Positions 12,961-31,007 of a stretch of 64,000 nucleotides of DNA are shown here, piece by piece. The translations under genes were made by a program, and so were the position numbers. The stretch is taken from positions 33,704 to 97,703 of the forward strand of contig LBNX01000003.1 of NCBI GenBank assembly GCA_000989185.1. The letters run 5' to 3'. Source of the stretch: a candidate division TM6 bacterium GW2011_GWF2_28_16. GTDB taxonomy: Bacteria > Babelota > Babeliae > Babelales > UASB340. A model generated the notes under the pieces. It did not search any database and was not told the DNA's origin. It saw nothing but the letters and a program-made list of their open reading frames with translations. Positions within the stretch are counted from its first letter, which is position 1. The number at the start of each line of letters is the position of its first letter.

Positions 12961-14280
12961 ATGGATGCACAACAATCTCTTTTTAAAAAAAATATAAAAC
13001 CTTTATCAGAAAATATGCGACCCAAAAATTTGGATGATATTTTTGGTCAAGAGCACTTGCTAGCGCAGGGCGCTATATTCAGAAAATTAGTCGAAAATGA
13101 TAGTTTGGGTAGCGTAATTTTTTGGGGGCCTCCTGGTACAGGCAAAACAACTATAGCAAATGTTATTGCTAATATCACAGAGCGCAAATTTATTACATTT
13201 CATGCAGCGTTTAATGGTGCAAAAGAAGTAAAAGATGTAATAGAATTAGCACAAAAAGAAATAAGTTTTGGTGCTAAAAGTTTAATATTGTTTGTAGATG
13301 AAATTCATAGATTTAATAAAGCACAGCAAGATTTATTTTTAAAACCTATAGAGCACGGTCAAATAATTTTAATAGGGGCTACAACAGAAAATCCTAGTTT
13401 TGCTGTAAATAATGCTTTATTAAGCAGATGCTCTGTTTATGCACTTAATCAATTAAAAGATATAGATCTAGAAAAAATAATTAATAAAATTCTTGAATAT
13501 TATAAAGCTTTAAATAAACAAGTCTTAATAGACGAACAAGCTAGAAAAATATTAATCGATTATTCTAATGGCGATGCTAGAAATATTATTAATATTATAG
13601 AATTAGCTGTTAGTGCATCTAAAGGATTAGTTAAAAATTGTGTAATTATAACTGTTGATATTATAAAAGAATTATTATCGACCAGAAAATTTGCTTATGA
13701 TAAAAATGGAGAACAGCATTATAATTTGCTATCAGCTTTGCATAAGTCTATTAGAGGCTCTGATGCTCAGGCTGGTATTTACTGGCTTGCAAGATTGCTT
13801 GAATCGGGTGCTGACCCATTAATTATTGTAAGAAGATTAATAGTAGCTGCAAGTGAAGATGTTGGTCTTGCAGATCCAGACGCACTACTTCAAGCTATTG
13901 CTGTAAAACATGCTATAGAACATTTGGGTTTGCCTGAGTGTAAAATAAATTTATCACAGTTAGTTATTTATTTGGCTACAGCACCAAAATCTAATAGTGC
14001 TTATATTGCTATAAATAATGCAATAAAAGATGTACATGAAAAAAATAATTTACCTGTGCCTTTAAATATTTGTAATGCAGAATCAAAGCTTATGACAAAT
14101 TTAGGATATGGTGCATATTATAAGTATGATCATGAATTTAAGTATCATTATGCAGGGCAAGAATTTTTGCCAGAAGATTTAAAAAATAGTATATATTATT
14201 CTCCAGGGGATTTGGGGTTTGAAAAAGAAATAAAAAGAAGAATAGAATTTTGGAAAAATTTAAAGGAATCTCATGGTTGA
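12961..14280 (+). CDS. rarA: Replication-associated recombination protein A (MgsA/RarA AAA+ ATPase)
   Basis: 439 aa. It has MRPKNLDDIFGQEHLL, Walker A GPPGTGKTT, Walker B LFVDEIHRFNK and the conserved C-terminal YW..R......DP block. Confidence 0.92.
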   Translation: MDAQQSLFKKNIKPLSENMRPKNLDDIFGQEHLLAQGAIFRKLVENDSLGSVIFWGPPGTGKTTIANVIANITERKFITFHAAFNGAKEVKDVIELAQKEISFGAKSLILFVDEIHRFNKAQQDLFLKPIEHGQIILIGATTENPSFAVNNALLSRCSVYALNQLKDIDLEKIINKILEYYKALNKQVLIDEQARKILIDYSNGDARNIINIIELAVSASKGLVKNCVIITVDIIKELLSTRKFAYDKNGEQHYNLLSALHKSIRGSDAQAGIYWLARLLESGADPLIIVRRLIVAASEDVGLADPDALLQAIAVKHAIEHLGLPECKINLSQLVIYLATAPKSNSAYIAINNAIKDVHEKNNLPVPLNICNAESKLMTNLGYGAYYKYDHEFKYHYAGQEFLPEDLKNSIYYSPGDLGFEKEIKRRIEFWKNLKESHG

Positions 14281-15190
14281 ACGTGTTGTTATAATTGGTT
14301 CTGGTCCAGCAGGACTTACTGCTGGTATTTATTTGGGTAGGGCAAAATTTGAGCCATTATTAATTGAGGGCATGCAACCTGGTGGTCAGCTTACTACAAC
14401 AACTAAAGTTGAAAATTGGCCAGGGATAAAAGAAGTTATGGGCTTTAAACTCATGATGGATATGAAAGATCATGCAAAGGCTTCTGGCTGTAAAATTATT
14501 TCTGATACAGTAGAAAGAGTAGATTTTTCTGGCATACCATATAAAATTTTTACAAAATTGGGAAAAGAATTTTTGGCTGAATCTGTAATAATTGCTACAG
14601 GAGCAAGTCACAAAAAATTAGGCATACAGGGAGAACAAGAATATTGGGCTAAAGGTGTTTCTGTTTGTGCAACATGTGATGCTCCATTTTTTCAGGATAA
14701 AAATGTGATTATAGTTGGCGGTGGTGATAGTGCTGTGACAGAAGCTGAGCATTTAACTCACTTTGCTAAAACAGTAACTATAGTTCATTTATTAGAAGAG
14801 CTAACTGCAAAAGATCCAATTAAATATAAAGTTCTTGAAAATAAAAAAGTAAATGTAATTTATAATTCAAGTGTTAAAAAAATAGATGGGGATGGTCTAC
14901 GTATGACCAAAGTTACTATAGAACATCAACAGACAGGTGATACTAAGGTTATCCCTGCAGAGGGTCTTTTTGTAGCCATTGGTATGAAGCCTAATACTGA
15001 TTTTTTAAAATCACAATTAGATTTAGATAATTATGGTTATGTTGTTCTTACTGGAAAAACTACAACTTCAAAAGAGGGCGTTTTTGCTGCAGGCGATGTT
15101 GCTGATTTTGTTTATAAACAAGCTATAACGGCTTCTGGTTTTGGGACTCAAGCTGCACTTGATTGTCAAAGATATTTATCAAAAAAATAA
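14273..15190 (+). CDS. trxB: Thioredoxin reductase (cytosolic type)
   Basis: 305 aa. It has the FAD motif IIGSGPAG, the redox CATCDAPFF and the NADPH motif IIVGGGDSA. There is an 8-nt overlap with rarA. Confidence 0.92.
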   Translation: MVERVVIIGSGPAGLTAGIYLGRAKFEPLLIEGMQPGGQLTTTTKVENWPGIKEVMGFKLMMDMKDHAKASGCKIISDTVERVDFSGIPYKIFTKLGKEFLAESVIIATGASHKKLGIQGEQEYWAKGVSVCATCDAPFFQDKNVIIVGGGDSAVTEAEHLTHFAKTVTIVHLLEELTAKDPIKYKVLENKKVNVIYNSSVKKIDGDGLRMTKVTIEHQQTGDTKVIPAEGLFVAIGMKPNTDFLKSQLDLDNYGYVVLTGKTTTSKEGVFAAGDVADFVYKQAITASGFGTQAALDCQRYLSKK

Positions 15191-15297: not shown

Positions 15298-16821
15298 TTA
15301 ATTAACAGCAATTAAAGTATTCTCTTTTATTTTTCTATCAATAGCAGTGTTAGCAAGTTCTTTTGTTAATATGCCATTTCCTCTGTTATATGCACTAATT
15401 TGCATTTCTAAAACAGCTTGAGATAAATCTCTACCCGAAAGACCAGCTGTTATTTGTGCTAAATTTTTTACAAAAGTTTGATCTATTTCTGGTGACATAT
15501 TTAACTTGCGTTCTACTTTTTGATTATTTATTTTTACGATTTTTGTATAGTCAGTAATATATTTTTTAAGATATAAATTTATTATTTGTTTACGTTCTTC
15601 TTGTCCAGGTAAATTAAAATTTATTTTGGTATCCATTCTGCTTAAAACTGCAGGATCTAATTGTGTTGCATGATTTGTAGCTAGTATTATCATTGTTTTA
15701 TTATTAACATCACCTGTGTTTGATAAAAATGCATTAACTAAATCTATTCTATTACTATCTAAGTCTTTTCTATTTCTTAAAAGTGCATCAGCTTCATCGA
15801 TAAAAATTATTAATCCCTTTGAGCTGCGTTTTGCCCAATCAAATAATTTGTGCATTTCTTGAATGGCTTTTTTGTGTTCAAATTGAGCAAAATCTGCTCC
15901 AGAAAGTATTGCATAATCCATGTTGCAGTATTTAGCTAATCGCTTTGCAAACATAGTTTTGCCTGTTCCTGGTACACCAAAGAATATAGTGTTTCTGTAA
16001 TTTAAGCCGTTAGCATGTGTTGCCTTTGTATCATATGCAAAATTACTTAAAGTTGTTTTTAACTCAGGGCTTAAAATTATTTCTTCTAGATTTTCTTCTT
16101 TTAATGGGTGTCCCATTATTTTATGTAACCAGAAATTTTTGAGTGTATTTTTAAAATTTATTTTATTAGATTCTCTTACTAAAACAGGTTGGCCCATTAA
16201 GCTTTCGATATAATTATAGCCTAATTTACTTGTGTAATAAGCAGCAGTTGAAAGACCTACGGCTAAACCTGTAGCAGCGCTTATATTTTTTAAATTTTCT
16301 ATTTTTAAAACTTCTTTTACAGAATCAACAGCTATTTTTATTTTATTTTGTCTTTCTTTGTCATTTTCTTCTGCCATTATTTTGTTTTTTTCGTCTAAAG
16401 CTTTTAAGTTTAAATTGTGATTTTCAGCTTCATGAAGCTTTTCTCTTTGATTTAATAATTCATTTTTGTAGCTGGTAACTTTTTCAATACAAAAATTAAG
16501 ACTTGCTTTTGCCATTACAAGATTATTGGTTTTAGTTTTTTCAAGATATTTAATTCTTTCTGTGGCCCAAGCAATATATTCAGTCCATATTTCTATTTTT
16601 TTTGTTAATTCAGATATATTTTTTTGAGCTTTTTGGCTTATAGTTTCAAATGTATTGTTAGCATAAAATAATTCTAGAATTGGTTCTTCTGGTGTTTTTC
16701 CTAAGCTATAAGGTTCATTATTGCCAAACATAGAATAATTGTTCTTTATAAAAAATACGTTTACAAATATAATTAAAATTATTGTTTTATTAATTTTTTT
16801 AAAATTTAAATTTATGAACAT
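15298..16821 (-). CDS. Membrane-anchored AAA ATPase resembling eukaryotic mitochondrial ATAD3
   Basis: 507 aa. The order is N-terminal TM, long coiled coil, a second hydrophobic segment, then the AAA module (GVPGTGKTMFAKRLA, IIFIDEAD). The blocks PVLVRES, YRNTIFFGVPGTGKT, MDYAILSGADFA, MHKLFDWA and LPGQEER match ATAD3 as I remember it. Confidence 0.7.
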   Translation of the reverse strand: MFINLNFKKINKTIILIIFVNVFFIKNNYSMFGNNEPYSLGKTPEEPILELFYANNTFETISQKAQKNISELTKKIEIWTEYIAWATERIKYLEKTKTNNLVMAKASLNFCIEKVTSYKNELLNQREKLHEAENHNLNLKALDEKNKIMAEENDKERQNKIKIAVDSVKEVLKIENLKNISAATGLAVGLSTAAYYTSKLGYNYIESLMGQPVLVRESNKINFKNTLKNFWLHKIMGHPLKEENLEEIILSPELKTTLSNFAYDTKATHANGLNYRNTIFFGVPGTGKTMFAKRLAKYCNMDYAILSGADFAQFEHKKAIQEMHKLFDWAKRSSKGLIIFIDEADALLRNRKDLDSNRIDLVNAFLSNTGDVNNKTMIILATNHATQLDPAVLSRMDTKINFNLPGQEERKQIINLYLKKYITDYTKIVKINNQKVERKLNMSPEIDQTFVKNLAQITAGLSGRDLSQAVLEMQISAYNRGNGILTKELANTAIDRKIKENTLIAVN

Positions 16822-16952
16822 AAAGTCCCCCTGTTAAATTCCCTAAAATGAGGCCTTAATATAGCATAAAATTTTTTAAAGAAAAAAGGCTTAAATTAAT
16901 TGCTGTTTGAATTTAATAACATTTATATTATGTGTATACAATATCTTTATAT

Positions 16953-17077
16953 CGCAGCAGGCGATAGCCTGCCGCTACCACAATATTGCCTACATAAACG
17001 TAGGCCTTTTGATTAATTCAATAAAGCCTGCCTTTAGGCATGGCGTAACTGAGGTAGAGGATGGCTATCGCCATCCG
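16953..17077. repeat. Cluster of GC-rich hairpins between two minus-strand genes
   Basis: The hairpins are GCAGGC-gata-GCCTGC, GCCTAC-ataaac-GTAGGC and GATGGC-tatc-GCCATC. The GAGGTAG motif is shared with class A repeats. Confidence 0.65.
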
Positions 17078-17081
17078 TTAT

Positions 17082-18599
17082 TTAATTATTTAATTTTTCG
17101 TTAATAATTTGTTTAAATGCAACTTCATCTCTGCCACCAGAGAATCTGGCAACCTCTTGGCCATTTTCGAATAATATAAATGTAGGTACTCCTCTAATGC
17201 CCCAAATTTGGGCTAGAATTTCTACATTAGCAACATCTGTTTTTATAAATTTTATAGTGTTTAATTCTTTTGCTAATTTTTCAACAATAGGATGCATCAT
17301 TTTACAAGGGAAGCACCAGTGGGCATAAAAATCTGCAACAACTTTGCCTTTGTAATTTAAAACTTCTTTTGCAAATTGTTGCTCATCTGTAACTTCTATT
17401 ACAGAGCCGAATGTTTGAGATTTTTGGGTTAGGTTCTTTGTAGGTACACTTTTTTTTGCTGGTGCTATTTCTTGAACGTCTTGTTTTTCAGGCGTTATTT
17501 TTTGTGCTTGATCTTGCACATTATTTTCTATATTTGTGTTTGGTGTGCTAAAACCAATTTTTGCTAAAAAACTTTGTGCATGCATTGCTGATCTTGCACC
17601 ATCACCTGCTGCTATAATTAATTGTTTATATTCAGGTTCACAGACATCTCCACAGGCAAAGATACCAGATTTAGAAGTTTTTTGGTTTTTATGGGTTAAG
17701 ATATAACCTTGTTCATCTAAATCTATTTTATTTTTAAATAATTCTGTATTTGGTTTAGCACCTATGGCCAAGAACATGCCATCAATATTAAGTTCACTTG
17801 TACTATTATTTTTATTATTAAATATTTCTAATTTTATAACTTTGTTATTATCGCCAATAACTTTTTTAATATTAGTATTATAAATTATCTCAATATTACT
17901 TTTGTTTTTTACAGTATCTGTTTGTTTGCCAGAAGCTCTTAATGTATCTCTTCTTACTATTAAATAAACTTTTTTCGCAATATTAGAAAGATATAAAGCA
18001 TCTGTAATTGCTGTATTACCACCACCAACTATAGCAACAGTTTTCTCTTTATAAAATGGGCCATCGCATGTTGCACATTTAGAAACGCCGTGCCCAAAAT
18101 ATTCTTTTTCGCCTGGTATATCCAAAAAGTTTGCTGTAGCACCAGTTGCTATAATACAAGATAATGCTTGTATTATTTTATCTTGGTTATTTTCTTTTAT
18201 ATTTATTAAATATGGCCAAACAGAAAAATCTACAGAATTAACTTGAGCGTTTATTATATTTGCACCAGAAGATATAGCATGCTCTTTTATTTTATTAGCC
18301 AAATCTATGCCAGAGATATTTTTTTCACCAGGCCAGTTACAGACAGAGTGTGATGCTGTTATAGCTCCACCAGGGATTGTGCCTTCTAATAAAACATGTT
18401 TTATGTTGCCTTGGCTTAAATAAATACTGGATGTTAACCCTGCAAACCCACCACCAATGATTACAACTGGGTAAGTGCTATCGTCTATTTTTACAACACT
18501 GGCGTCTAATTTTTTGAAATTTTTGGTAGAAGAATAGTTAAGACAACCTACTAAAAATACTAAACATAATATTAACGTTAAATTTTTTATGGCCTTCAT
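17082..18599 (-). CDS. Thioredoxin reductase-thioredoxin fusion with N-terminal lipoprotein signal peptide
   Basis: 505 aa. The signal is MKAIKNLTLILCLVFLVGC (lipobox LVGC). It has FAD (VIIGGGFAG), CATCDG and NADPH (IVGGGNTA) motifs, a low-complexity linker, then a thioredoxin fold with WCFPC. Confidence 0.8.
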   Translation of the reverse strand: MKAIKNLTLILCLVFLVGCLNYSSTKNFKKLDASVVKIDDSTYPVVIIGGGFAGLTSSIYLSQGNIKHVLLEGTIPGGAITASHSVCNWPGEKNISGIDLANKIKEHAISSGANIINAQVNSVDFSVWPYLINIKENNQDKIIQALSCIIATGATANFLDIPGEKEYFGHGVSKCATCDGPFYKEKTVAIVGGGNTAITDALYLSNIAKKVYLIVRRDTLRASGKQTDTVKNKSNIEIIYNTNIKKVIGDNNKVIKLEIFNNKNNSTSELNIDGMFLAIGAKPNTELFKNKIDLDEQGYILTHKNQKTSKSGIFACGDVCEPEYKQLIIAAGDGARSAMHAQSFLAKIGFSTPNTNIENNVQDQAQKITPEKQDVQEIAPAKKSVPTKNLTQKSQTFGSVIEVTDEQQFAKEVLNYKGKVVADFYAHWCFPCKMMHPIVEKLAKELNTIKFIKTDVANVEILAQIWGIRGVPTFILFENGQEVARFSGGRDEVAFKQIINEKLNN

Positions 18600-18782
18600 G
18601 ATAATCTTTCGTTTATATAAATTTAATCAACTATAAAAATATTAGCAAAATCAAAACTTAAGTTAAGTGCTATAAAAATTAAATTTTTTGTATTTGTTGA
18701 TTGGCTTAAGTTTTTTATTGGATATTATTGTGAATAAAGAGATTAAGCAAAAATTAAAAAATTAAAGAGAAAGGGGATTAGC

Positions 18783-19916
18783 ATGTTTGCTGCTATCAAA
18801 AAAATGGGGTACAAAAAGATCGTTTTTATTTTATTTACGTTTATTTTGGCTATAAATTTTGCTTTTATTAGTAATAAAATTATGGCATTGCCAGATAGCT
18901 TAAATAGTCCAGAAAATATAAGTACTCAAGTAACAAATAAGAGTAATGTTGCTGAAAAAGCAAAAATAAGCTCTTTTTTTAATTTAGAAAATTTAAAACA
19001 AATATTTTCGCCCGAAAAATCTGTATTATATTTATTTATATTGGCATTTTTAATAGGTTTAATTACGAGTTTTACTCCATGTGTTTATCCTATGATTCCA
19101 ATAACTTTGGGAATATTACAAACCCAAGCTAGTGGGTCTGTATTAAGAAATTTTATGTTATCTGTAAGTTATGTTCTTGGTATTAGTACAATATATGCAT
19201 TTTTGGGTTATTTAGCTGCAACAACAGCTATTATGTTTGGTCAATGGTTAGCTAATCCATGGCTTATATTTTTTATAATATTATTTTTTATTTATTTAGC
19301 TTTTTCTATGTTTGGTTTTTACGAAATTAAAATGCCTCGTTTTTTAACTAAAAGAGAAAATGTAAGTGTTAAAGGTTCTTATTTTTATAGTTATTTATTT
19401 GGTTTAATTTCTGGCACAGTTGCATCTCCATGTTTAACACCATCGCTTGCTATAGTTTTGAGCTTTGTAGCAAAAGCTGGTAGCCCGGTAATAGGCTTTT
19501 TTGCCTTGTTTTTCTTTTCTTTAGGGATGGGGATTTTATTAATTTTAATTGGTACATTTTCAGCATCACTTTCTATTTTGCCAAGAGCTGGTATGTGGAT
19601 GATAGAGATTAAAAAGTTTTTTGGTTTTGTTTTGCTTTTTATGTCTATTTATTTTTTACAGCCATTATTGGGTGGATTTGCTGCATATAAATTATATGCG
19701 ATTTTAATTTTAATTTCTGGAGTTTATTATTTAGTAAAAGCTCAAAATAGTAAGATAAAAATTTATTTGGGTATTTTATTAATTATAAGTTCGTTAATAT
19801 TAACGGGATGGATTATAAGAGAAAAAAACACGAGAAGAACAAGGCTTTTGGCTACAAATTTAAAGCCTGACAGTATGCTTGTTTGTTTAAGTACCGCCAG
19901 GCACCAAAGATTATAA
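18783..19916 (+). CDS. CcdA/DsbD-family thiol:disulfide electron-transfer membrane protein
   Basis: 377 aa and polytopic. The conserved Cys motifs are FTPCVYPMIP and VASPCLTP. Confidence 0.8.
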   Translation: MFAAIKKMGYKKIVFILFTFILAINFAFISNKIMALPDSLNSPENISTQVTNKSNVAEKAKISSFFNLENLKQIFSPEKSVLYLFILAFLIGLITSFTPCVYPMIPITLGILQTQASGSVLRNFMLSVSYVLGISTIYAFLGYLAATTAIMFGQWLANPWLIFFIILFFIYLAFSMFGFYEIKMPRFLTKRENVSVKGSYFYSYLFGLISGTVASPCLTPSLAIVLSFVAKAGSPVIGFFALFFFSLGMGILLILIGTFSASLSILPRAGMWMIEIKKFFGFVLLFMSIYFLQPLLGGFAAYKLYAILILISGVYYLVKAQNSKIKIYLGILLIISSLILTGWIIREKNTRRTRLLATNLKPDSMLVCLSTARHQRL

Positions 19917-19920
19917 AAAA

Positions 19921-20355
19921 TTATAATAATTTATTAATAGCTTCTTCGAGTTCTTGTTCAGAAATTTCACCAGCAATTTGTGTTACAATATTATTATCTT
20001 TAAATAATACAAAAGTTGGTACACCTAGTATATTATATTTGTCTGTTATTTCGCCTAAATTGCTTGCATCAACTTTGAAAAAGTTTATTTTTGTAAAATA
20101 TTTATTTGCTAATTTTTCGTAAATAGGTTCCATAACTTTGCATGCGCTGCACCATTTAGTTTCGAACTTAACTACGCAAGGTTTTTGATTTGAAAAAACT
20201 TGGGAATCAAAGTCTTGAGAGCTTGTTATATTAATTATTTTTGAGTTTAAAGTTTCTTGAGAGATATTTATTTGATTGTCGTTGGTTTTTTTTTCTAAAG
20301 AATTACACCCAGAGAAAATAGTCAAAATTATTGTACCAATAAATATTTTTTTCAT
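19921..20355 (-). CDS. Periplasmic (lipoprotein) thioredoxin-like protein
   Basis: 144 aa. The signal MKKIFIGTIILTIFSGC is followed by a thioredoxin fold with WCSAC. Confidence 0.8.
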   Translation of the reverse strand: MKKIFIGTIILTIFSGCNSLEKKTNDNQINISQETLNSKIINITSSQDFDSQVFSNQKPCVVKFETKWCSACKVMEPIYEKLANKYFTKINFFKVDASNLGEITDKYNILGVPTFVLFKDNNIVTQIAGEISEQELEEAINKLL

Positions 20356-20490
20356 AATCTTTCTCCCCTTATTTAAATAAAAAAACTACTTAAAACTTAT
20401 AATATCTAGAAAAATTTTTATTGTATATATACCATTATTAAATATAATAAAAAAAGTAATAAAATTCAGTATTAGTTCAGGTATATAATA

Positions 20491-20763
20491 ATGACAAGAA
20501 AAAAATATTTTTCGCTACTATTTTTTATATCTGTTTCGTTTATGTTTTTTAAAATATATCAACATAATTTACTAATAAAATTAAACTATGAAAAACAGAG
20601 ATTAGAAATAAAAAAGGAACAACTAAAACAAAAGAAAAATTCGCTTTTGGTTGAATTTTTTAAATTAAAAGATTTTAAACGTATCAAAAATATTGCACAG
20701 CAAGACTTTGGGTTTCAAGATTTAAAACTATCCCAAATAAAAACATTTACTTGTGATGTTTAA
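20491..20763 (+). CDS. FtsL-like small bitopic division protein
   Basis: 90 aa with one TM plus a coiled coil, immediately upstream of ftsI. The call rests on position and architecture only. Confidence 0.45.
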   Translation: MTRKKYFSLLFFISVSFMFFKIYQHNLLIKLNYEKQRLEIKKEQLKQKKNSLLVEFFKLKDFKRIKNIAQQDFGFQDLKLSQIKTFTCDV

Positions 20764-24442: not shown

Positions 24443-25219
24443 TTATAAAATAGCTTTAAATTCTTCAAAAATTTGATCTGGTGTTTTTTGTGAAACACTT
24501 AATATTTCTATATTTATACCAGAATCTTGATACGCTTTTATAAGCTCATCTTCGTTTTTATAATAAACATCAAATCTTTGTGAAATAACTTCTGGCTTAT
24601 CATCATTTCTTTGTATTAAAACACTACTACATTTTAAGCATTTGCCTGCAGCAATTTCTGGCATAGAGGTATTATAAACAGCCTGACAAGATTTATTAGG
24701 GCAAACGCGTCTATTAACAAGTCTATTGGTTATCTCGCCTTTTGATATTTCTAGTTTTACTACTCTAAAATTATGTTCGGGTAAATTATTTTTAATTAAA
24801 GTTATTAATTTTTGAGCTTGAACATCTGTTCTTGGAAATCCATCTAAAATTATTTGTCTATCTGTATCTTTTACAGATAACAGCCATTCCTTTACCATGC
24901 TAATTACAAGATCGTCTGGTACTAGTTCGCCTTTGTCCATATACTTTTTAAGTTCTTGGCCAATAGTAGTATTGTTTGCAATATGTTGTCTGAATAAATC
25001 ACCTGTCGAAAGAACGATAAAATTTAATTTGCTTGCTGCTTGTTGAGCTAATGTGCCTTTGCCAGCACCAGGAGCACTTAAAAATGTGAATATAAATTTT
25101 TTATTTTTTAGCATGTTATTTTTGACCTCTTTACTATTATTTATAAAATTAGAGCAACCTGATAATAAAATTAAACAAAAAATAAATATATTTGTCACGA
25201 TCTTAGTTATTGTCTGCAT
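24443..25219 (-). CDS. adk: Adenylate kinase with an in-frame N-terminal lipoprotein signal peptide (alternative internal start at 25114)
   Basis: P-loop SAPGAGKGT and Zn-lid Cys pairs (CPNKSC...CLKC) are present. The 35-codon extension MQTITKIVTNIFIFCLILLSGC has a classic lipobox. Both ATGs have SD-like purine runs upstream. Confidence 0.85.
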   Translation of the reverse strand: MQTITKIVTNIFIFCLILLSGCSNFINNSKEVKNNMLKNKKFIFTFLSAPGAGKGTLAQQAASKLNFIVLSTGDLFRQHIANNTTIGQELKKYMDKGELVPDDLVISMVKEWLLSVKDTDRQIILDGFPRTDVQAQKLITLIKNNLPEHNFRVVKLEISKGEITNRLVNRRVCPNKSCQAVYNTSMPEIAAGKCLKCSSVLIQRNDDKPEVISQRFDVYYKNEDELIKAYQDSGINIEILSVSQKTPDQIFEEFKAIL

Positions 25220-25272: not shown

Positions 25273-26958
25273 TTAAAAAATAGGCTCAAATTCGCAGTTT
25301 TTTGGTTTTGGTAAGTTTAATATTTTTGCAACTGTTGCAGGTAGTTGTGGTATCCATACTCTATTTTTAAATTTTTTATGTTCAAAAACACCTGGTTGAT
25401 AAATTATTAATGGAACATGCGTATTAAATTTACTACCAGTTCTATGCCCTGTACCATATTTTTCTTCAGCAACTGTAGAATATTTATTTGGTATGATAAT
25501 TATGTGACCAGATCTTTTTAGATATATTTGATTTTTATAAAAGTTTTCAACAGAGCTAAACTTAAAATTACCATTTAGTAATTCTTGATCTGTATAAACT
25601 TTGCTTACTCCTGGCTTGGAGCGTATTATTTTTTTAATATTTTTAAATAAGCTATTTTTAGTATCTACTGGAATTTTGTTTAGTTCTTTAACGTTTAAAT
25701 ATAGTTGGCATGATTTAATTTCGTAAACAATATTATTTATATTATATTTAGTTTTTATTTTATTATTGATTTCAGCTTTGAGTTCATTTGCTTTTATAAC
25801 ATGTGCATCGTAACCGCGTTTTTTGCTTATTTTTACTAATGGTTGTATGCCATGATCTGCTGTTAAAATAAATAATATATTTTTTTCGCCAATTTTTTTA
25901 TTAATAAAATTTGTAAATTCTTTTATTTGATGGTCTAGGTGGTAAATCATGTCTATAGCTTCTATGCTATCTGGACCGTATGTATGACCTAAATAATCTA
26001 ACGGAGAAAGTGAAATCCATAAAAGCATTGGTTTTATGGGTTTTGTATTATCAAAATTTTTTTCTATACATGTTTTACTTAAATCAAGTAATACTTTATT
26101 TGCTAAAGGTGTTTTAATAAATTCACTATATTCAGGGTATTCGTAAATATTTTTTTTAAAATAATCTTTTAAATATTTATTTGAAATTAATGTTTTATTA
26201 TCTTGAACATATTTATAATGTGTTTTTTTATGAAAATCTATATAGTCAAAATTGTAATATTTAGTTTTGCTATTTATTGTATATAAATATTTATTATGTA
26301 ATTTATAAAATAACTCCCATTTATAATTTTTTATAATATTATCAAGGTTATAATTTGCATTAAAATCTTGAACCCATTCTGGTATTTCATTAAAAAAAGC
26401 TTTAGATGTTGTAAAAATTCCTGTTTTATCATCAAACCAAATAGGATTGCCAGACGCACCAGACATACCAATAGATGCTCTAGATTTTAGTGATATAGAA
26501 TATGTTTTATAATCTGGATATTTTTTTGTAAATTCATAAGTAAGCCCTGAGCACATAGTATTTTTAGCACTTTTACCGTAATTTTGTAGTTTGTTCTCTG
26601 GACCAAAAACTAAAGAATTTTGTGAATCATCTTGATCACTTTTTACTTTTTGATATTCCGGGGTTATCCAAGCATTATTTATTATTCCATGATCGCGAGC
26701 AAAAGCTCCTGTGTTTAATGCTGTATGCCCGGTTGCTGTAGCTGGCGTTCCATGAGGATGATGCGCGTTTCTGCAAGTAATACCATTCTTTAGTAAATCT
26801 TTAAATGCATAATTAAAATTTTCATTTAATTTTTCTATATAATTATAAGCAAACTGATCTATTACCATTATTATAGTTAAGTCTGGTATATTGCTAAAAA
26901 TATTTAAACTAAAAATTAAATTTAATAATAATATTTTAATAAATAAAGATGTTTTCAT
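25273..26958 (-). CDS. Secreted alkaline-phosphatase-superfamily enzyme (PafA/NPP-like)
   Basis: 561 aa with a signal peptide. The metal/nucleophile region is VIDQF...GTPATATGHTALNTGAFARDHGIINNAW, with a distal ADHG. Confidence 0.6.
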   Translation of the reverse strand: MKTSLFIKILLLNLIFSLNIFSNIPDLTIIMVIDQFAYNYIEKLNENFNYAFKDLLKNGITCRNAHHPHGTPATATGHTALNTGAFARDHGIINNAWITPEYQKVKSDQDDSQNSLVFGPENKLQNYGKSAKNTMCSGLTYEFTKKYPDYKTYSISLKSRASIGMSGASGNPIWFDDKTGIFTTSKAFFNEIPEWVQDFNANYNLDNIIKNYKWELFYKLHNKYLYTINSKTKYYNFDYIDFHKKTHYKYVQDNKTLISNKYLKDYFKKNIYEYPEYSEFIKTPLANKVLLDLSKTCIEKNFDNTKPIKPMLLWISLSPLDYLGHTYGPDSIEAIDMIYHLDHQIKEFTNFINKKIGEKNILFILTADHGIQPLVKISKKRGYDAHVIKANELKAEINNKIKTKYNINNIVYEIKSCQLYLNVKELNKIPVDTKNSLFKNIKKIIRSKPGVSKVYTDQELLNGNFKFSSVENFYKNQIYLKRSGHIIIIPNKYSTVAEEKYGTGHRTGSKFNTHVPLIIYQPGVFEHKKFKNRVWIPQLPATVAKILNLPKPKNCEFEPIF

Positions 26959-27221: not shown

Positions 27222-28574
27222 ATGTTTTTTCGTATTATCAAGTTTTTTTGGCCAGATTTATCTAATGAAGAGATAAAAAAATATGGAATGCTTTCCATGG
27301 CTTTCTTTTTCATTATTGGAGCATACTGGTTATTGCGCCCATTAAAAGATGGTTTCTTTTTTAGTGCAGTAGGTGGAAAATATCAACCAACAGCAAAAAT
27401 GCTTTCAGTTCTTATTGTTGGTATTTTGGTAATGGTTTATTCAAAGCTTGTAGATATAGTCGAGAAACATAAATTATTTTATATTTTGGGTTCTATATAT
27501 ACAGTTTTGTTTGCAATAGTTGCTTACGTAGTAAACTTCCCAGTTGAAGGACCGGGCGCTTTAAACCCATCAATCTTAAGATTTTTTGGTTGGGCTTCTT
27601 ACTTTATTATAGAAAGTTTTGGTTCTATAGTAGTTGCACTTTTTTGGTCTTTTACTGCTAGCGTTTCTGATGCTAAATCTGCAAAAAAAGGTTATTCATT
27701 AGTTATAGCCGGTGCTCAAATTGGCGCAATATTTGGACCCTTTATGGCAACATATGCAAAAAGCTGGGGTTTAATGCCGTTATTTTTAATTGGTACAGTT
27801 TCTATAATGCTTATGATGTTTATCATAAACCGTTTTATGGCTGTAACTCCAAAAGAACAATTAGAAATAAATAAACAAGAAGTTAAATCTGAATCTGCTC
27901 CAAAAACAGGCTTTTTAGAAGGTTTAAAACTTTTATTAACAAGACCATATTTATTAGGAATATTTGCAGTAGTTACAATTTATGAAGTTGTTGGAACTAT
28001 TGTTGACTATCAAATGAAGATGCAAGCACAAGCATTGCCTCAGTATGCATCAAGAGAATCTTTAACAGCATTCTTGGGTGTATTTGGTATGTCTGCAAAT
28101 GCATTAGCATTCTTTATGGCTCTTTTAGGTACAGGTTATATGATGAAAAAACTTGGCCTAAGATTTTGTTTATTAACATTCCCTATTGTTTTGGGTCTTG
28201 CTGTTGCTGGTTTATATGCTGCATATACTTGGGGTCATTTTAATCCAATGATGCTATTGTGGGCAACCTTTGGTGTTATGATGATTGCAAAAGGTTTAAG
28301 CTATGCATTAAATAATCCTGCAAAAGAAATGATGTATATTCCAACAAGTAAAGATGTAAAATTCAAATCTAAAGGTTGGATTGATATGTTTGGCTCAAGA
28401 AGCTCAAAAGCTGTTGGTGCAGCATTTACCGATTCATTAAAAGGTAATGCATATAATTTAATGGCTTATGGAACAATTTTATCTTTAGGCTTTATTGGTG
28501 TTTGGATTGTTGTTGCATTCTTTGTAAGCAATAAATTTGAACGTCTTACAGCAGAAGGCAAAATTGTTGAATAA
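27222..28574 (+). CDS. NTT/Tlc-family nucleotide (ATP/ADP) antiporter, paralog 1
   Basis: 450 aa and polytopic. The blocks LLRPLKDGFFF, ESFGSIVVALFWSF...SAKKGY and NNPAKEMMYIP...KFKSKGWIDMFG match Chlamydia/Rickettsia Npt/Tlc proteins as I remember them. Confidence 0.75.
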   Translation: MFFRIIKFFWPDLSNEEIKKYGMLSMAFFFIIGAYWLLRPLKDGFFFSAVGGKYQPTAKMLSVLIVGILVMVYSKLVDIVEKHKLFYILGSIYTVLFAIVAYVVNFPVEGPGALNPSILRFFGWASYFIIESFGSIVVALFWSFTASVSDAKSAKKGYSLVIAGAQIGAIFGPFMATYAKSWGLMPLFLIGTVSIMLMMFIINRFMAVTPKEQLEINKQEVKSESAPKTGFLEGLKLLLTRPYLLGIFAVVTIYEVVGTIVDYQMKMQAQALPQYASRESLTAFLGVFGMSANALAFFMALLGTGYMMKKLGLRFCLLTFPIVLGLAVAGLYAAYTWGHFNPMMLLWATFGVMMIAKGLSYALNNPAKEMMYIPTSKDVKFKSKGWIDMFGSRSSKAVGAAFTDSLKGNAYNLMAYGTILSLGFIGVWIVVAFFVSNKFERLTAEGKIVE

Positions 28575-28728: not shown

Positions 28729-30075
28729 ATGTTTACACGATTTTTTAAATTTTTCGGTAAAGATTTAAGTAGTAAAGAAGTTGAAAAATTTAGTCTTCTT
28801 GCTTTAGCATTTTTTTTTACAGTTGGTGGCTACTGGCTTTTAAAAACATTAAAAGACGGTTTCTTTTTTAATGTCGTTGGTGGTCAATTTCAGCCTAGAG
28901 CAAAAATGCTCTCACTTGTTGTTATTTCTATATTAGTACTTGTTTATAGTAAACTTGTAGATATATTTCATAGACATCAATTATTTTATATTTTTGGAAC
29001 TTTTTTTGCAGTTTTTTTTGCACTTGTATCAATATCTTTGGCTTTACCTGTGCATAGTTTTGGCCCGGCTTATTTGCAATATATAAAAATTTTAGGATGG
29101 GCTTCGTACGTTATGGTCGAAAGCTTTGGATCTATTATGATTGCATTATTCTGGTCTTTTGTAACAAGTATTACAGATACAGAATCTGCAAAGCGTGGTT
29201 ATTTTTTAATTGTTGCAGGCGCTCAACTTGGTGCAATATTTGGTCCCTTTTTATCTTGGAATGCTAAATTTTTTGGATTACCAATATTGTTCGCTATGGC
29301 AACAGCATGCATATTAGCTTTAATTTTAGTCATAAAAAAATTTATTTCAGTTACTCCACAAGAAGAACTTATTGGAGGTAAACAAGATATAAGACCTCAG
29401 GAAAAGACAGGCTTTTGGCAAGGTTTAAAACTTATTACAACCAAACCATATTTATTTGGGATTTTATTATTAGTTATTTTTTATGAAACAGTTACAACTA
29501 TAGTTGATTATCAAATGAAAATTCTAGCACAAGCATTACCTGAGTATGCAACTAAAGAAGCTTTGACATCTTTTATGGGTATATTTGGTATGGCGACCAA
29601 TGGTTTATCTTTATTAATGGCTCTTTTTGGTACAGGTTATTTAATTAAAAAATTTGGGTTACGTTTTTGTTTGTTGGCATTTCCGGTTGCTGTAGGGTTT
29701 GCTATAGCTGCATTATATGGAGTTATTAAATTAGATTTTTTAACTACTCAAAGTATGTTATGGGCAACTTTTACAGTTGTAATTATAGCCAAAGGCTTAA
29801 GTTATGCTCTTAATAATCCTGCAAAAGAGGTTATGTATATTCCAACAAGTAGAGACGCTAAATTTAAAGCTAAAGGTTGGATAGATATGTTTGGTGCCAG
29901 AGGTGCTAAAGCAATAGGTTCTGGGTTTAATGAATATTTAATTAGAACTCCAGATGTTTTATTATATCTTGGTTCTATTTTGTCTTTGGGTTTAATAGGT
30001 ATATGGATTATAGTGGCTCTTCTTGTGGGTAATAAATTTAATAGATTAATAAAAAACAATCAGATAGTCGGATAA
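28729..30075 (+). CDS. NTT/Tlc-family nucleotide antiporter, paralog 2
   Basis: 448 aa, colinear with paralog 1 (LLKTLKDGFFF, ESFGSIMIALFWSF...SAKRGY, NNPAKEVMYIP...KFKAKGWIDMFG). Confidence 0.75.
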   Translation: MFTRFFKFFGKDLSSKEVEKFSLLALAFFFTVGGYWLLKTLKDGFFFNVVGGQFQPRAKMLSLVVISILVLVYSKLVDIFHRHQLFYIFGTFFAVFFALVSISLALPVHSFGPAYLQYIKILGWASYVMVESFGSIMIALFWSFVTSITDTESAKRGYFLIVAGAQLGAIFGPFLSWNAKFFGLPILFAMATACILALILVIKKFISVTPQEELIGGKQDIRPQEKTGFWQGLKLITTKPYLFGILLLVIFYETVTTIVDYQMKILAQALPEYATKEALTSFMGIFGMATNGLSLLMALFGTGYLIKKFGLRFCLLAFPVAVGFAIAALYGVIKLDFLTTQSMLWATFTVVIIAKGLSYALNNPAKEVMYIPTSRDAKFKAKGWIDMFGARGAKAIGSGFNEYLIRTPDVLLYLGSILSLGLIGIWIIVALLVGNKFNRLIKNNQIVG

Positions 30076-30233: not shown

Positions 30234-31007
30234 ATGTACCCAAAATTATTACACATTTTTGGTCCAATATGGATCCACAGTTACGGAACAATGATAGCTG
30301 TGGGTTTTTTATTTTTTGTTTATTTTCTCTATAAAAATCCAAAAAGAATACAATTAATATCTGACGAAAAATTTTTAAATTTATTATTTATAGGACTTAC
30401 TTCTGGAATAATTGGAGGTAGGCTTATTTTTGTTATATACGACTGGGAATTATTTCGAGATAATTTTTGGCAAGTATTTTACCCGTGGGTTGGTGGATTT
30501 GGAATATTGGGTTCTGTTATTGGTGTTTTGTTTTCTTGTTATATATTTTTAAAAAAAAATAAAATAAATTTTTTAAAAATATTTGATCTTGTTGGTGTTT
30601 ATGCAGCATTATTAGAGGGTTTTGGACGTATAGGTTGTTTTTTGGCAGGGTGTTGTTATGGCAAAATAGCTGATGCTAGCTGTACATGCTCTGTTGTATT
30701 TAAAAATCCAGAAGGTCTTGCGCCGCTAAATATACCATTACATCCAACACAGTTATATTCAAGCTTGGCTTCATTTTTAATATTTTTAATTATTTATTTT
30801 AGATCTAAATATTTTTCTTATAAAAATGGTGAAATTATATTTAGTTATTTATTATTGTTTAGTTTGTCGCGAATTATTATAGATTTTTTTAGAGGCGATA
30901 GAGATTTTGTTAATAATTTTTATTTACTTTCTTATTATCAACTAATAGCGATTGTTGTTTTTATTGTTTCGCTTATATCTATAATTTACATTCGAATTAA
31001 AAAATAA
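30234..31007 (+). CDS. lgt: Prolipoprotein diacylglyceryl transferase
   Basis: 257 aa and polytopic. The motifs are IHSYGTMIAVGF, GGRL, GRIGCFLAGCCYG and HPTQLY. Confidence 0.85.
   Translation: MYPKLLHIFGPIWIHSYGTMIAVGFLFFVYFLYKNPKRIQLISDEKFLNLLFIGLTSGIIGGRLIFVIYDWELFRDNFWQVFYPWVGGFGILGSVIGVLFSCYIFLKKNKINFLKIFDLVGVYAALLEGFGRIGCFLAGCCYGKIADASCTCSVVFKNPEGLAPLNIPLHPTQLYSSLASFLIFLIIYFRSKYFSYKNGEIIFSYLLLFSLSRIIIDFFRGDRDFVNNFYLLSYYQLIAIVVFIVSLISIIYIRIKK

Follow-up and report, generated by a model that had tools for sequence, protein, structure and literature searches.

In the textbook view of bacterial redox biology, disulfide reductases that consume NAD(P)H stay in the cytoplasm, and nothing but thiol-disulfide exchange by DsbD or CcdA spans the membrane. 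The thioredoxin reductase-thioredoxin (TrxR-Trx) fusion of Mycobacterium leprae is a single bacterial polypeptide that is cytoplasmic and lacks an export signal. The sulfhydryl oxidases of the QSOX/Erv type, which join a Trx module to a flavin disulfide enzyme, are extracytoplasmic. FAD that is not covalently bound has to be taken up by a Sec-exported protein once it has left the cytoplasm. Precedents are few; one Sec-exported periplasmic flavoprotein is Shewanella FccA, whose FAD is exported separately. NADPH is not known to be available in any bacterial periplasm. In Streptococcus pneumoniae, the CcdA-Etrx1/2-MsrAB2 system is outlined as CcdA working with extracytoplasmic thioredoxin-like lipoproteins (PMC3914529). 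Our literature searches turned up no published description of an exported TrxR-Trx fusion.

A TrxR-Trx fusion with a lipoprotein-type signal

The window (the whole 64-kb stretch of DNA that was analysed), from an intracellular parasite of the amoeba type in the Dependentiae, encodes a TrxR-Trx fusion next to a DsbD-type gene and a lipobox thioredoxin gene (Table 1). The three ORFs reported in the preliminary description are present, and its sequence observation is confirmed. It had claimed a reductase with complete FAD, CATCDG and NADPH motifs, fused through a low-complexity linker to a WCFPC thioredoxin. Each of these motifs was located exactly; Pfam Pyr_redox_2 (PF07992) covered residues 44-333 (E 2e-50; 172 bits against a cutoff of 26) and Pfam Thioredoxin (PF00085) covered residues 402-500 (E 6e-26). 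With NCBIfam TRX_reduct (TIGR01292), the fusion scored 333.2 bits, narrowly below the cutoff of 343.45, which is consistent with a divergent subfamily. Its Trx domain scored 91 bits with TIGR01068, under the equivalog cutoff of 96.8. In an AlphaFold2 model, the reductase domain had pLDDT >90 over residues 42-347, and Foldseek matched the model to solved TrxRs with TM up to 0.93 and an rmsd of 2.0 Å. Linker residues 358-396 had pLDDT <50 and are predicted to be disordered; the linker varied in length and sequence among homologues.

The fusion begins with MKAIKNLTLILCLVFLVG, followed by Cys19 (LVG, then C19). This N-terminus can be dissected as MKAIKN-LTLILCLVF-LVG-C19 and satisfies the lipoprotein pattern (positive n-region, short h-region, lipobox [LVI][ASTVI][GAS]C), in agreement with the signal peptide and lipobox noted earlier. 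Upstream of the Rossmann fold, Met1 is the only in-frame start: neither ATG nor GTG nor TTG recurs after it. Translation of this gene therefore cannot bypass the signal.

Table 1. Positions of the fusion gene, its predicted parts and related genes in the window
Feature	Position	Strand	Basis
TrxR-linker-Trx fusion with lipoprotein signal, 505 aa	17082..18599	-	ORF, Pfam and NCBIfam domains, ~100 full-length homologues
Predicted Sec/SPII signal peptide, residues 1-18 (n-region MKAIK, h-region ~12-14 aa, lipobox L-V-G)	18546..18599	-	sequence, hydrophobicity, kept in relatives
Cys19, predicted lipidated +1 cysteine of the lipobox	18543..18545	-	
Low-Mr thioredoxin reductase domain, residues 44-345	17565..18470	-	
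FAD motif GGGFAG, residues 49-54	18438-18455	-	exact motif location
Redox motif CATCDG, residues 175-180	18060-18077	-	exact motif location
NADPH Rossmann motif GGGNTA, residues 192-197	18009-18026	-	exact motif location
NADPH 2'-phosphate motif VRRDTLRA, residues 215-222	17934-17957	-	exact motif location
Low-complexity disordered interdomain linker, residues 348-399	17403..17558	-	
Thioredoxin domain of the fusion, residues 400-503	17091..17402	-	Pfam Thioredoxin
WCFPC of the Trx domain, residues 428-432	17304-17318	-	exact motif location
AT-rich divergent intergenic region, 183 bp, common to fusion and DsbD gene	18600..18782	.	
DsbD-beta/CcdA-type membrane conduit, 377 aa, N-terminal signal/anchor then multi-TM core	18783..19916	+	DsbD_TM
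C100 in TPCVYP and C217 in SPCLTP of the DsbD-type protein	19074-19091; 19425-19442	+	
Lipobox thioredoxin, 144 aa (signal 20308-20355; Cys17 20305-20307; WCSAC, residues 68-72, 20140-20154)	19921..20355	-	
Signal-less cytoplasmic-type TrxB	14273..15190	+	TIGR01292 362 bits
VHLLEELTA of the signal-less TrxB, where NADPH-type enzymes have HRRxxxR	14783-14809	+	
Lipobox adenylate kinase, second predicted exported nucleotide-dependent enzyme (context)	24443..25219	-	
Lgt (prolipoprotein diacylglyceryl transferase)	30234..31007	+	Pfam LGT E 3e-54

Conservation of the export signal

A heuristic classifier called an export-type N-terminus (SPI or SPII) in 199 of 220 fusion homologues (~90%) and in ~125 of 143 representatives (the best 143, clustered at 50% identity). 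An export signal thus appears to be kept in ~200-300 relatives in Dependentiae and Chlamydiae, which supports the exported reading of the preliminary description. That description had called an exported reductase of this kind abnormal and had named loss of the N-terminal hydrophobic segment in orthologues as an observation that would count against it; the segment is kept.

The signal takes two forms. Dependentiae members have lipoboxes, and Chlamydiae members have short, cleavable type-I-like Sec signals, in which the n-region is positive and the mature N-terminus acidic. An anchor that faces the cytoplasm could not be formed by a cleavable type-I signal, so the two signal types in one clade favour export. 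The lipobox Cys was present in all homologues of the lipobox group, with G, S or A at -1 and mostly L at -3, and the lipobox statistics of 51 relatives matched the consensus. Conservation of this Cys in every close relative, while the rest of the h-region varies, indicates that the signal is more than chance. No lipobox-group homologue had Asp at +2, a hint of an outer membrane or cell surface location. The h-regions were 12-15 residues long in the family (median 14-15 aa among signal-bearing homologues), a length typical of signal peptides and not of TM anchors. The n-region charge was at least +2 in 92% of the type-I group versus 77% of the lipobox group, and the median post-h charge in the type-I group was -2. 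A Tat-like motif was seen in 1 of 310 family members, and the n-region in the window (MKAIKN) has no twin-arginine motif; export of the family is probably by Sec rather than Tat.

In a Parachlamydiales subgroup, a hydrophilic N-terminal extension replaces the Sec signal. Automatic gene calls differ at the N-terminus of the fusion, and some database entries begin downstream.

This variation in gene calls is what speaks for the signal being a neutral relic or a gene-calling error in an ordinary cytoplasmic NTRC-like enzyme. We regard such an artefact as extremely improbable. In the window gene no other start codon is available, the signal is kept across >100 clusters at 50% identity, where it changes type yet stays export-competent, and those homologues without an apparent signal that were checked had mis-called starts and regained the signal on extension. 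From the sequences, as distinct from a demonstration, we infer strongly that the fusion is exported from the cytoplasm.

Family and catalytic residues

The reductase domains of the putative exported fusions formed one clade, apart from ordinary TrxBs, in 60 of 60 neighbor-joining bootstraps; the family has a single origin. In the family alignment, CATC, both Rossmann motifs and R216 were invariant or near-invariant, and C429 and C432 of the Trx domain were invariant. The NADPH-phosphate motif R-[KR]..[RK] was kept in ~200 of 220 homologues. The buried Asp (D423) and the cis-Pro (P472) of the Trx domain were also conserved. The family motif is WCxPC (WCGPC in 140 of 310), a motif of the reductant type.

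These residues bear on the alternative that the fusion is exported yet not NADPH-reductive, which we consider unlikely. Here DsbD would reduce the Trx domain, or the flavoenzyme would run in reverse as a QSOX-like sulfhydryl oxidase, passing electrons from client thiols through Trx and CATC to FAD and on to O2 or NADP+, and so making disulfides without a respiratory chain or quinones for DsbB. The joining of Trx and flavoenzyme follows a logic like that of QSOX, and one clade has a DsbD neighbour. DsbB-type oxidation would be left without an acceptor, since TM6 genomes have no electron transport chain (PMC4776705). The motif WCGPC/WCxPC and the Trx-like buried Asp are, however, unlike the C-P-H-C or C-G-H-C type of DsbA/PDI. 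Moreover, the 2'-phosphate-binding residues, which an O2-dependent oxidase would not need, are under purifying selection, and most of the family lacks the DsbD linkage.

The trxB listed in the preliminary description is indeed present, but the term "ordinary" did not hold: its HRRxxxR position is changed (Table 1), and the NADPH-specific arginines are missing from this signal-less TrxB and from its counterparts in three relatives. Of these two TrxRs, only the putative exported one retains NADPH determinants.

Labelled members of the family are Dependentiae/Babeliales or Chlamydiae-type. These lineages are obligate intracellular, and the distribution therefore fits a host-supplied cofactor; as far as labels go, the family is confined to intracellular parasites of eukaryotes.

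Most homologues are unlabelled metagenomic sequences. Two are labelled Verrucomicrobia(ota), so that a free-living carrier is possible; for these, synteny and a SWIB gene on the contig indicate Chlamydiae.

Neighbouring genes

The DsbD/CcdA-type conduit and WCSAC lipobox thioredoxin that had been placed beside the fusion were both recovered as ORFs with the expected domains. The DsbD-type protein matched DsbD_TM (PF02683; E 2e-53) and NCBIfam DsbD at positions 158-431. It is core-only, without the alpha and gamma periplasmic domains; its TM layout comes from a crude map. The lipobox thioredoxin begins with MKKIFIGTIILTIFSG, followed by C17, and matched PF00085 (E 8e-25), scoring 80 bits with TIGR01068 against the cutoff of 96.8.

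The fusion and the DsbD gene diverge from a shared spacer, and the DsbD gene and the small Trx gene converge; the three are not one operon. A promoter scan of the spacer was uninformative (19 sites versus 21 expected). The divergent DsbD-fusion pairing was seen in five genomes (the window and loci L001/2, L043 and L044). Near DsbD, L044 carries an orthologue of the lipobox Trx (with WCGAC), which L001 and L043 lack. L037, L038 and the chlamydial loci do not have the DsbD/Trx neighbourhood. Adjacency of DsbD to the fusion is clade-local, in one Dependentiae sub-clade only.

Given the pairing in five genomes, the Trx domain might draw its electrons from DsbD instead of NADPH. The pairing also suits another explanation, in which the N-terminal helix is a membrane anchor and the fusion faces the cytoplasm as an NADPH-driven donor to the DsbD core, which would reduce the lipobox Trx outside. 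Such an arrangement would solve the supply of FAD and NADPH, and no separate cytoplasmic thioredoxin was seen in the window. We nevertheless judge it very unlikely. The mere anchor considered in the preliminary description fits poorly with a segment conserved in two export forms, with h-regions of only 12-15 residues and with exceptions that proved to be mis-called. In addition, the lipobox Cys is invariant in its group, positive n-regions with a neutral-to-acidic post-h region indicate an N-in/C-out orientation, in Chlamydiae the orthologues carry signals of the cleavable type without a DsbD gene next to them, and DsbD adjacency is lost in other Dependentiae.

Proposed mechanism

Several genes in the window concern envelope or nucleotide functions. 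Besides Lgt, it encodes BamA, a T2SS-F-like protein, two TLC nucleotide carriers, a signal-bearing nucleotide pyrophosphatase and the adenylate kinase of Table 1, a conserved lipobox protein; no LspA was seen within the 64-kb window. Lgt, BamA and the T2SS-F-like protein are machinery that supports export of the fusion. Every TM6 genome studied has ATP/ADP translocases (PMC4776705). The carriers, translocases, adenylate kinase and pyrophosphatase make a nucleotide-containing periplasm plausible.

With somewhat better than even confidence, we propose that the fusion is an extracytoplasmic, self-contained disulfide reductase of the NTRC type, fed by host-derived NADPH and FAD. The precursor would be exported unfolded through Sec and lipidated at Cys19 by the window-encoded Lgt, after which the signal would be cleaved. 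A tether of ~25 residues would keep the protein on the membrane, facing the periplasm, where it would fold around FAD. Electrons would pass from NADPH to FAD, to Cys175/Cys178, to Cys429/Cys432 of the Trx domain and finally to oxidised cysteines of envelope or exported clients; transfer from reductase to Trx domain would probably occur across a homodimer, as in NTRC. NADPH and FAD would come from the host-derived nucleotide pool, which must cross the parasite periplasm to the TLC/NTT carriers. Host NADPH as donor is an inference from the conserved NADPH-binding residues and the nucleotide-parasite gene set of the organism. The DsbD core and the lipobox Trx would form a conventional reducing route fed from the cytoplasm, probably parallel to the fusion and not its electron source. 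The sequences themselves show the domain architecture, the intact catalytic and cofactor motifs, the conserved export signals and the single origin of the family; actual export, the source of the cofactors, the direction of electron flow and the clients belong to the proposal.

The fusion might instead be an effector, its lipoprotein forms displayed on the surface and its type-I forms released by a T2SS into the host cytosol or vacuole, where it would reduce host or parasite-surface proteins or counter host oxidants. NADPH and FAD are abundant in the host cytosol. The T2SS-F-like gene, the lack of Asp at +2 in any member and the Parachlamydiales extension, which could be another secretion signal, are compatible with this. 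Secretion into the amoeba is assumed for signal-bearing ankyrin proteins of Babela (PMC4378268). Lipid anchoring speaks against free secretion in Dependentiae, and we think an effector role improbable; it overlaps with the extracytoplasmic reductase proposed above and does not exclude it.

Implications

A broader idea, which we offer tentatively and hold to be rather less than an even bet, is that Dependentiae and Chlamydiae, two unrelated phyla of obligate intracellular bacteria, share, through horizontal transfer, an exported NTRC-like enzyme that burns host NADPH in the periplasm or at the surface and is also a host-entry switch. If this is true, it would amount to "redox parasitism", a counterpart of the ATP parasitism that uses NTT carriers. 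As NADPH would be present only inside the host cell, the fusion would also act as the switch: envelope disulfides would be reduced, or exported thiol enzymes activated, only once the parasite is intracellular. In Chlamydiae, the infectious stage has an envelope cross-linked by disulfides, and such a switch would bear on the long-standing question of how this envelope is reduced after entry. The fusion is a concrete candidate for a reductase that acts on envelope proteins specifically at the intracellular stage, both in Dependentiae and in environmental Chlamydiae.

An exported fusion would imply a periplasm stocked with host nucleotides, which the putative exported adenylate kinase supports, and would suggest a new form of host exploitation, the theft of reducing power. 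A large, conserved family of exported NADPH/FAD-dependent TrxR-Trx proteins would break the rule that NAD(P)H-dependent disulfide reductases are cytoplasmic. The family also poses an annotation problem: its members are entered in databases as "thioredoxin reductase" or "FAD-dependent oxidoreductase", and at times the signal is cut off in gene calling.

Comparison with known systems

NTRC of chloroplasts and cyanobacteria has the same order as the fusion (low-Mr TrxR, flexible linker, Trx with C-x-P-C), and the FAD, CxxC and NADPH motifs are likewise intact. The 487-aa Chlamydomonas chain (PDB 7p9d/7p9e) matched fusion residues 45-500 (E 4e-64). NTRC resides where NADPH is produced, in the stroma or cytoplasm, whereas the fusion family has bacterial Sec/lipoprotein signals. 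NTRC was no nearer to the fusion (220 bits) than plain TrxRs were (237 bits), and an independent origin of this TrxR-Trx fusion is possible, judging from these PDB scores. The M. leprae protein likewise has TrxR followed by Trx and belongs to another lineage.

AhpF also combines a TrxR-like flavoenzyme with thioredoxin folds, and AhpF models matched the fusion at E 3e-68 (230 bits, far under the cutoff of 503). Unlike in the fusion, the Trx folds of AhpF are N-terminal, and the enzyme is cytoplasmic and dedicated to AhpC. In QSOX, the Erv flavin fold is unrelated, electrons flow oxidatively to O2 and no pyridine nucleotide takes part, whereas the fusion motifs are of the reductant type. FccA provides a precedent for maturation with non-covalent FAD after Sec export, but enzymes of this kind are supplied with electrons by cytochromes or quinol instead of NAD(P)H.

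The DsbD-type protein and the lipobox thioredoxin of the window match exactly the scheme of DsbD/CcdA with Trx-like lipoproteins (ResA/TlpA/CcmG type). That scheme has the same purpose as the one proposed for the fusion, reducing power outside the cytoplasm. There, NADPH is spent on the cytoplasmic side, and what passes across the membrane is thiol-disulfide exchange alone; in the fusion, the NADPH/FAD enzyme itself carries the signal.

Architecture of the fusion and its gene neighbourhood

Three intact ORFs were found at 17082-20355 of the window, whose G+C content is about 28% (table below). The first encodes a protein of thioredoxin reductase (TrxR), linker and thioredoxin (Trx), hereafter the fusion. 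It scored 333 bits against the NCBIfam thioredoxin-disulfide reductase equivalog TIGR01292, narrowly below the 343-bit cutoff. Its AlphaFold2 model (mean pLDDT 87.9) predicted a helix (residues 2-25), a confident TrxR body (42-347) and a confident Trx fold (400-503), with a disordered linker (358-396, pLDDT <50). Foldseek matched the reductase part to solved structures of low-Mr TrxRs (TM as high as 0.93), and the best full-length solved relative by sequence was the Chlamydomonas NTRC-type chain 7p9d/7p9e (487 aa), aligned to query residues 45-500. Judged by sequence and predicted fold, the 505-aa protein is structurally both a TrxR and a TrxR-Trx fusion. The ORF, domain matches and motif positions confirmed the preliminary description of such a fusion with WCFPC, a lipobox signal and complete FAD, CATCDG and NADPH motifs. 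The neighbouring CcdA/DsbD-type gene and lipobox Trx that it had reported were borne out by the DsbD_TM match, C100 and C217, and by C17 and WCSAC.

Features of the window (nucleotides) and of the fusion protein (residues)
Feature	Position	Strand	Remarks
Clostripain-type (C11) cysteine peptidase	3994-5355	+	signal-bearing
Signal-less TrxB	14273-15190	+	motif VHLLEELTA at 14783-14809
AAA ATPase	15298-16821	-	N-terminal hydrophobic segment
Fusion	17082-18599	-	505 aa
Fusion signal			MKAIKNLTLILCLVFLVG then Cys19 (exact motif position)
Fusion domain Pyr_redox_2	residues 44-333		Pfam, E 2e-50
Fusion FAD motif	residues 49-54		GGGFAG
Fusion redox motif	residues 175-180		CATCDG
Fusion NADPH Rossmann motif	residues 192-197		GGGNTA
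Fusion 2'-phosphate motif	residues 215-222		VRRDTLRA
Fusion domain Thioredoxin	residues 402-500		Pfam, E 6e-26
Fusion Trx motif	residues 428-432		WCFPC
DsbD_TM protein	18783-19916	+	E 2e-53; P-C cysteines C100, C217
Lipobox thioredoxin	19921-20355	-	144 aa; IFSG before C17; WCSAC
Lipobox adenylate kinase	24443-25219	-	N-terminus MQTITKIVTNIFIFCLILLSG before C; P-loop at residues 48-56
Type I phosphodiesterase / nucleotide pyrophosphatase	25273-26958	-	Sec-type signal MKTSLFIKILLLNLIFSLNIFS
TLC/NTT (ATP/ADP translocase-type) nucleotide carriers, two tandem	27222-28574, 28729-30075	+	directly upstream of lgt
Lgt	30234-31007	+	
BamA	45290-47719		

The fusion and DsbD genes point away from each other across a 183-bp spacer, and the DsbD and small Trx genes converge; the three form a neighbourhood, not an operon. 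In the AT-rich DNA at 16800-20500, a promoter and terminator scan found promoter-like sites at chance level (19 vs 21 expected). The DsbD_TM protein has no alpha or gamma domains, and its DsbD_TM match covers residues 85-295. Outside this match, its C-terminus carries a conserved basic tail, ...LLATNLKPD.MLVCLSTA.HQRL, common to L001, L043 and L044, loci of Dependentiae relatives.

Synteny of the block PBP-(Trx)-DsbD<->fusion-AAA-trxB-MgsA links the window with L001/2 (70% identity), L043 (61%) and L044 (56%); the lipobox Trx is present only in the window and L044. The AAA ATPase gene always lies between the fusion and trxB in L001, L043 and L044. Since the DsbD neighbour was absent at two other Dependentiae loci (L037, L038) and at all chlamydial loci, the DsbD-fusion adjacency is clade-local and may be a matter of gene order passed down by descent, not of a functional link.

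The export signal and its conservation

The signal of the fusion is not skippable, because no in-frame ATG, GTG or TTG was found between Met1 and the Rossmann fold. Its hydrophobic core of about 12-15 residues has the length of a signal peptide and not of a TM helix.

A homology search with the fusion returned about 100 full-length TrxR-Trx fusions. In all 29 of the closest, labelled Dependentiae, Babeliales or TM6, the h-region ended in ...[GS]C. Remoter homologues, labelled Chlamydiae, Chlamydiales, Parachlamydiales or Rhabdochlamydiaceae, had classical type-I-looking signals, for example MKKLLLLLALFLFQFAHA followed by QE. When the set was enlarged to 220 fusions, 160 signals were SPI-like and 39 had a lipobox. 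The h-regions there had a median length of 14-15 aa. An n-region charge of +2 or more was seen in 92% of the fusions with type-I signals and 77% of those with a lipobox, and in the type-I group an acidic segment (median charge -2) came after the h-region. Together they form the signature of N-in/C-out export and would be unexpected for a cytoplasm-facing anchor.

Such an anchor, through which the fusion would feed DsbD from the cytoplasm, is attractive in that it solves the problem of cofactor supply. It is contradicted by the signal geometry, by the invariant lipobox Cys and by orthologues with cleavable-type signals; moreover, the DsbD linkage is not general.

In an exhaustive search, about 125 of the 143 highest-ranked representatives (50% identity) had SPI- or SPII-type N-termini, and ordinary signal-less TrxBs were confined to the bottom of the list. 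The preliminary description had asked for a distinction between Sec and Tat: a Tat-like motif occurred in only 1 of 310 family members, and by its N-termini the fusion family is a Sec family.

A signal-less subgroup of fusions was considered and, in the tested members P0044 and P0099, came down to a wrongly called start or to an extension of another, hydrophilic kind. The N-termini of the subgroup resembled the mature N-terminus, and for P0044 an upstream ATG brings back MKRFLKSFLFAFIIPVMPM.... The deposited gene call of P0099 (locus L039) starts inside the Rossmann fold. In a Parachlamydiales subgroup (L039, 4821-5000; also P0081 and P0087), the place of the Sec signal is taken by a hydrophilic extension, conserved and about 45 aa long, with the motif ...S[RK]AGLRR[LI]..ENA..IPTYP. 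This extension may be another secretion signal, for example for T3SS.

Orthologues without an N-terminal hydrophobic segment had been named in the preliminary description as evidence against export. This objection fails, because the signal is conserved in the homologues (199 of 220 fusions) and the exceptions that were inspected are resolved. We regard this conservation as decisive evidence that the predicted signal is real, and an artefactual signal is excluded for practical purposes. The 505-aa protein is probably exported.

Family tree and distribution

In a neighbour-joining tree of reductase domains from fusions and plain TrxBs, the lipobox and type-I-signal fusions grouped in a single clade in all 60 bootstraps. 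The clade was separate from the plain TrxBs, including the TrxB of the same genome (44% identical to the reductase domain of the fusion). Within it the type of export signal switched while the catalytic body was kept, a pattern that would be hard to explain unless export itself was selected.

A second, smaller fusion clade (P0104, P0108, P0110 and P0114, resembled by P0296, P0299, P0301 and P0326) branches apart and has longer N-terminal TM-like anchors or lipoboxes. Because P0108 is labelled Babeliales, some Dependentiae may have two kinds of anchored or exported fusion. Eight longer representatives (P0239, P0243, P0247, P0275, P0291, P0292, P0303 and P0318; 612-1427 aa) carry extra domains; in P0243 (1427 aa) the TrxR part is residues 878-1191. 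A scan of genome contigs with the fusion as query found generic TrxBs only and no close relatives. The extended-coverage loci L007, L008, L010, L012 and L015 were rejected as signal-less fusion controls: they open with a separate Trx ORF closed by a stop codon, as would be expected of neighbouring trxA and trxB genes.

The label Verrucomicrobia(ota) is attached to two proteins of the chlamydial branch, including P0151 in locus L041. An origin of the type-I-signal clade in free-living Verrucomicrobia, which would undercut host NADPH, was not supported by synteny. L041 and L042 have in common the gene order methyltransferase, upstream sulfatase-family gene, fusion, and L040 and L042 have in common flanking sulfatase-family genes, a HAD hydrolase and a pseudouridine synthase. 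L042 also carries a gene for a SWIB domain, a chlamydial hallmark among bacteria, and GTDB places Chlamydiia inside Verrucomicrobiota. On these grounds the family is probably spread over Dependentiae and Chlamydiae only.

The 'Sulfatase'-family genes flank the fusion up- and downstream in L040 and L042 and only upstream in L041, which ends directly after the fusion gene. Because they have multi-TM N-termini and no C-x-P-x-R motif, they are LtaS/OpgB-like; Cys-type (formylglycine) sulfatases, which need a thiol reductant, were rejected.

Catalytic residues and direction of electron flow

Over 36 diverse members, C175 and C178 of CATC, the FAD and NADPH glycine motifs, R216, and the Trx residues C429, C432 and P472 were invariant, and D423, the buried Asp of thioredoxins, was nearly so. 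TrxR-like enzymes that gave up NADPH typically lack the basic 2'-phosphate motif. The triad R-[KR]...[RK] is kept in about 200 of 220 members, which argues that the family probably still uses pyridine-nucleotide binding. Of 310 members, 140 have WCGPC as their Trx motif and nearly all others C-x-P-C; the motif is thus of the reductant type and not DsbA- or PDI-like. Because the catalytic residues, the triad and this motif are kept, the sequences favour an NTRC-like path in which electrons would pass from NADPH to FAD, CATC, Trx and a client disulfide.

An exported fusion might instead be fed by DsbD or be oxidative like QSOX. The idea is of interest because DsbB would find no quinones in Dependentiae, but it fits poorly with a reductant-type Trx motif and a conserved NADPH site.

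In the signal-less TrxB, GGGDSA is retained, with VHLLEELTA in place of the NADPH-specific HRRxxxR, all three arginines being gone; H[IL]LEELT is likewise found in the TrxB of L001, L043 and L044. As far as these motifs indicate, NADPH determinants are kept in this genome only by the exported reductase, and the signal-less TrxB may prefer NADH or another donor.

Cofactor supply and candidate clients

We infer that the host is the source of NADPH and FAD, which three lines of context make plausible. First, the source organism is a diderm nucleotide parasite: besides Lgt, BamA and the nucleotide carriers, the window encodes a T2SS-F-like protein and ankyrin-repeat proteins. ATP/ADP translocases were reported in all TM6 genomes studied, as was the loss of the TCA cycle and respiratory chain (PMC4776705); host nucleotides must therefore cross the periplasm. 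Second, the lipobox adenylate kinase has the appearance of an ATP-dependent enzyme that an ATP parasite exports. Dependentiae relatives with as little as about 50% identity still have its lipobox, and the P-loop of 103 ordinary adenylate kinases begins near residue 7. Some database entries (223 aa) begin downstream, and these starts may hide the signal. The nucleotide pyrophosphatase gene adjoins that of the kinase, the pair being syntenic in L001/L002, which suggests periplasmic nucleotide processing. Third, the NADPH determinants are kept by the exported reductase and lost from the signal-less TrxB, as described above.

Clients might be, speculatively, thiol-dependent exported enzymes, such as the C11 peptidases, or disulfide-cross-linked envelope proteins. 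At L038 an exported C11 peptidase (2336-3688) is encoded on the same strand, 30 bp upstream of the fusion. A role as an effector in the host, either displayed on the cell surface or secreted, is compatible with these data and overlaps the model of an extracytoplasmic reductase driven by host NADPH, towards which, as a full mechanism, we lean by a little.

Comparison with known systems

The interpretation of the preliminary description, an exported TrxR-Trx, is supported at the level reachable by sequence analysis. Searches of the open-access literature brought up no account of a TrxR or NTRC-like protein that is exported or periplasmic; in the Babela genome paper the nearest remark is on an 'expansion of thioredoxin reductases' (PMC4378268). 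What appears new is a known chemistry and architecture at an unprecedented predicted location, in a large conserved family. A conserved exported NADPH/FAD disulfide reductase would be surprising for bacterial redox or chlamydial biology and is readily testable.

The DsbD core and lipobox Trx of the window fit the well-known scheme of CcdA/DsbD plus an extracytoplasmic Trx-lipoprotein, and we regard them as a conventional route parallel to the fusion. The fusion shares its predicted function and architecture with NTRC and the M. leprae TrxR-Trx fusion but would act in the compartment served by DsbD/CcdA. Unlike NTRC, it is thus predicted to reside away from where NADPH is made.
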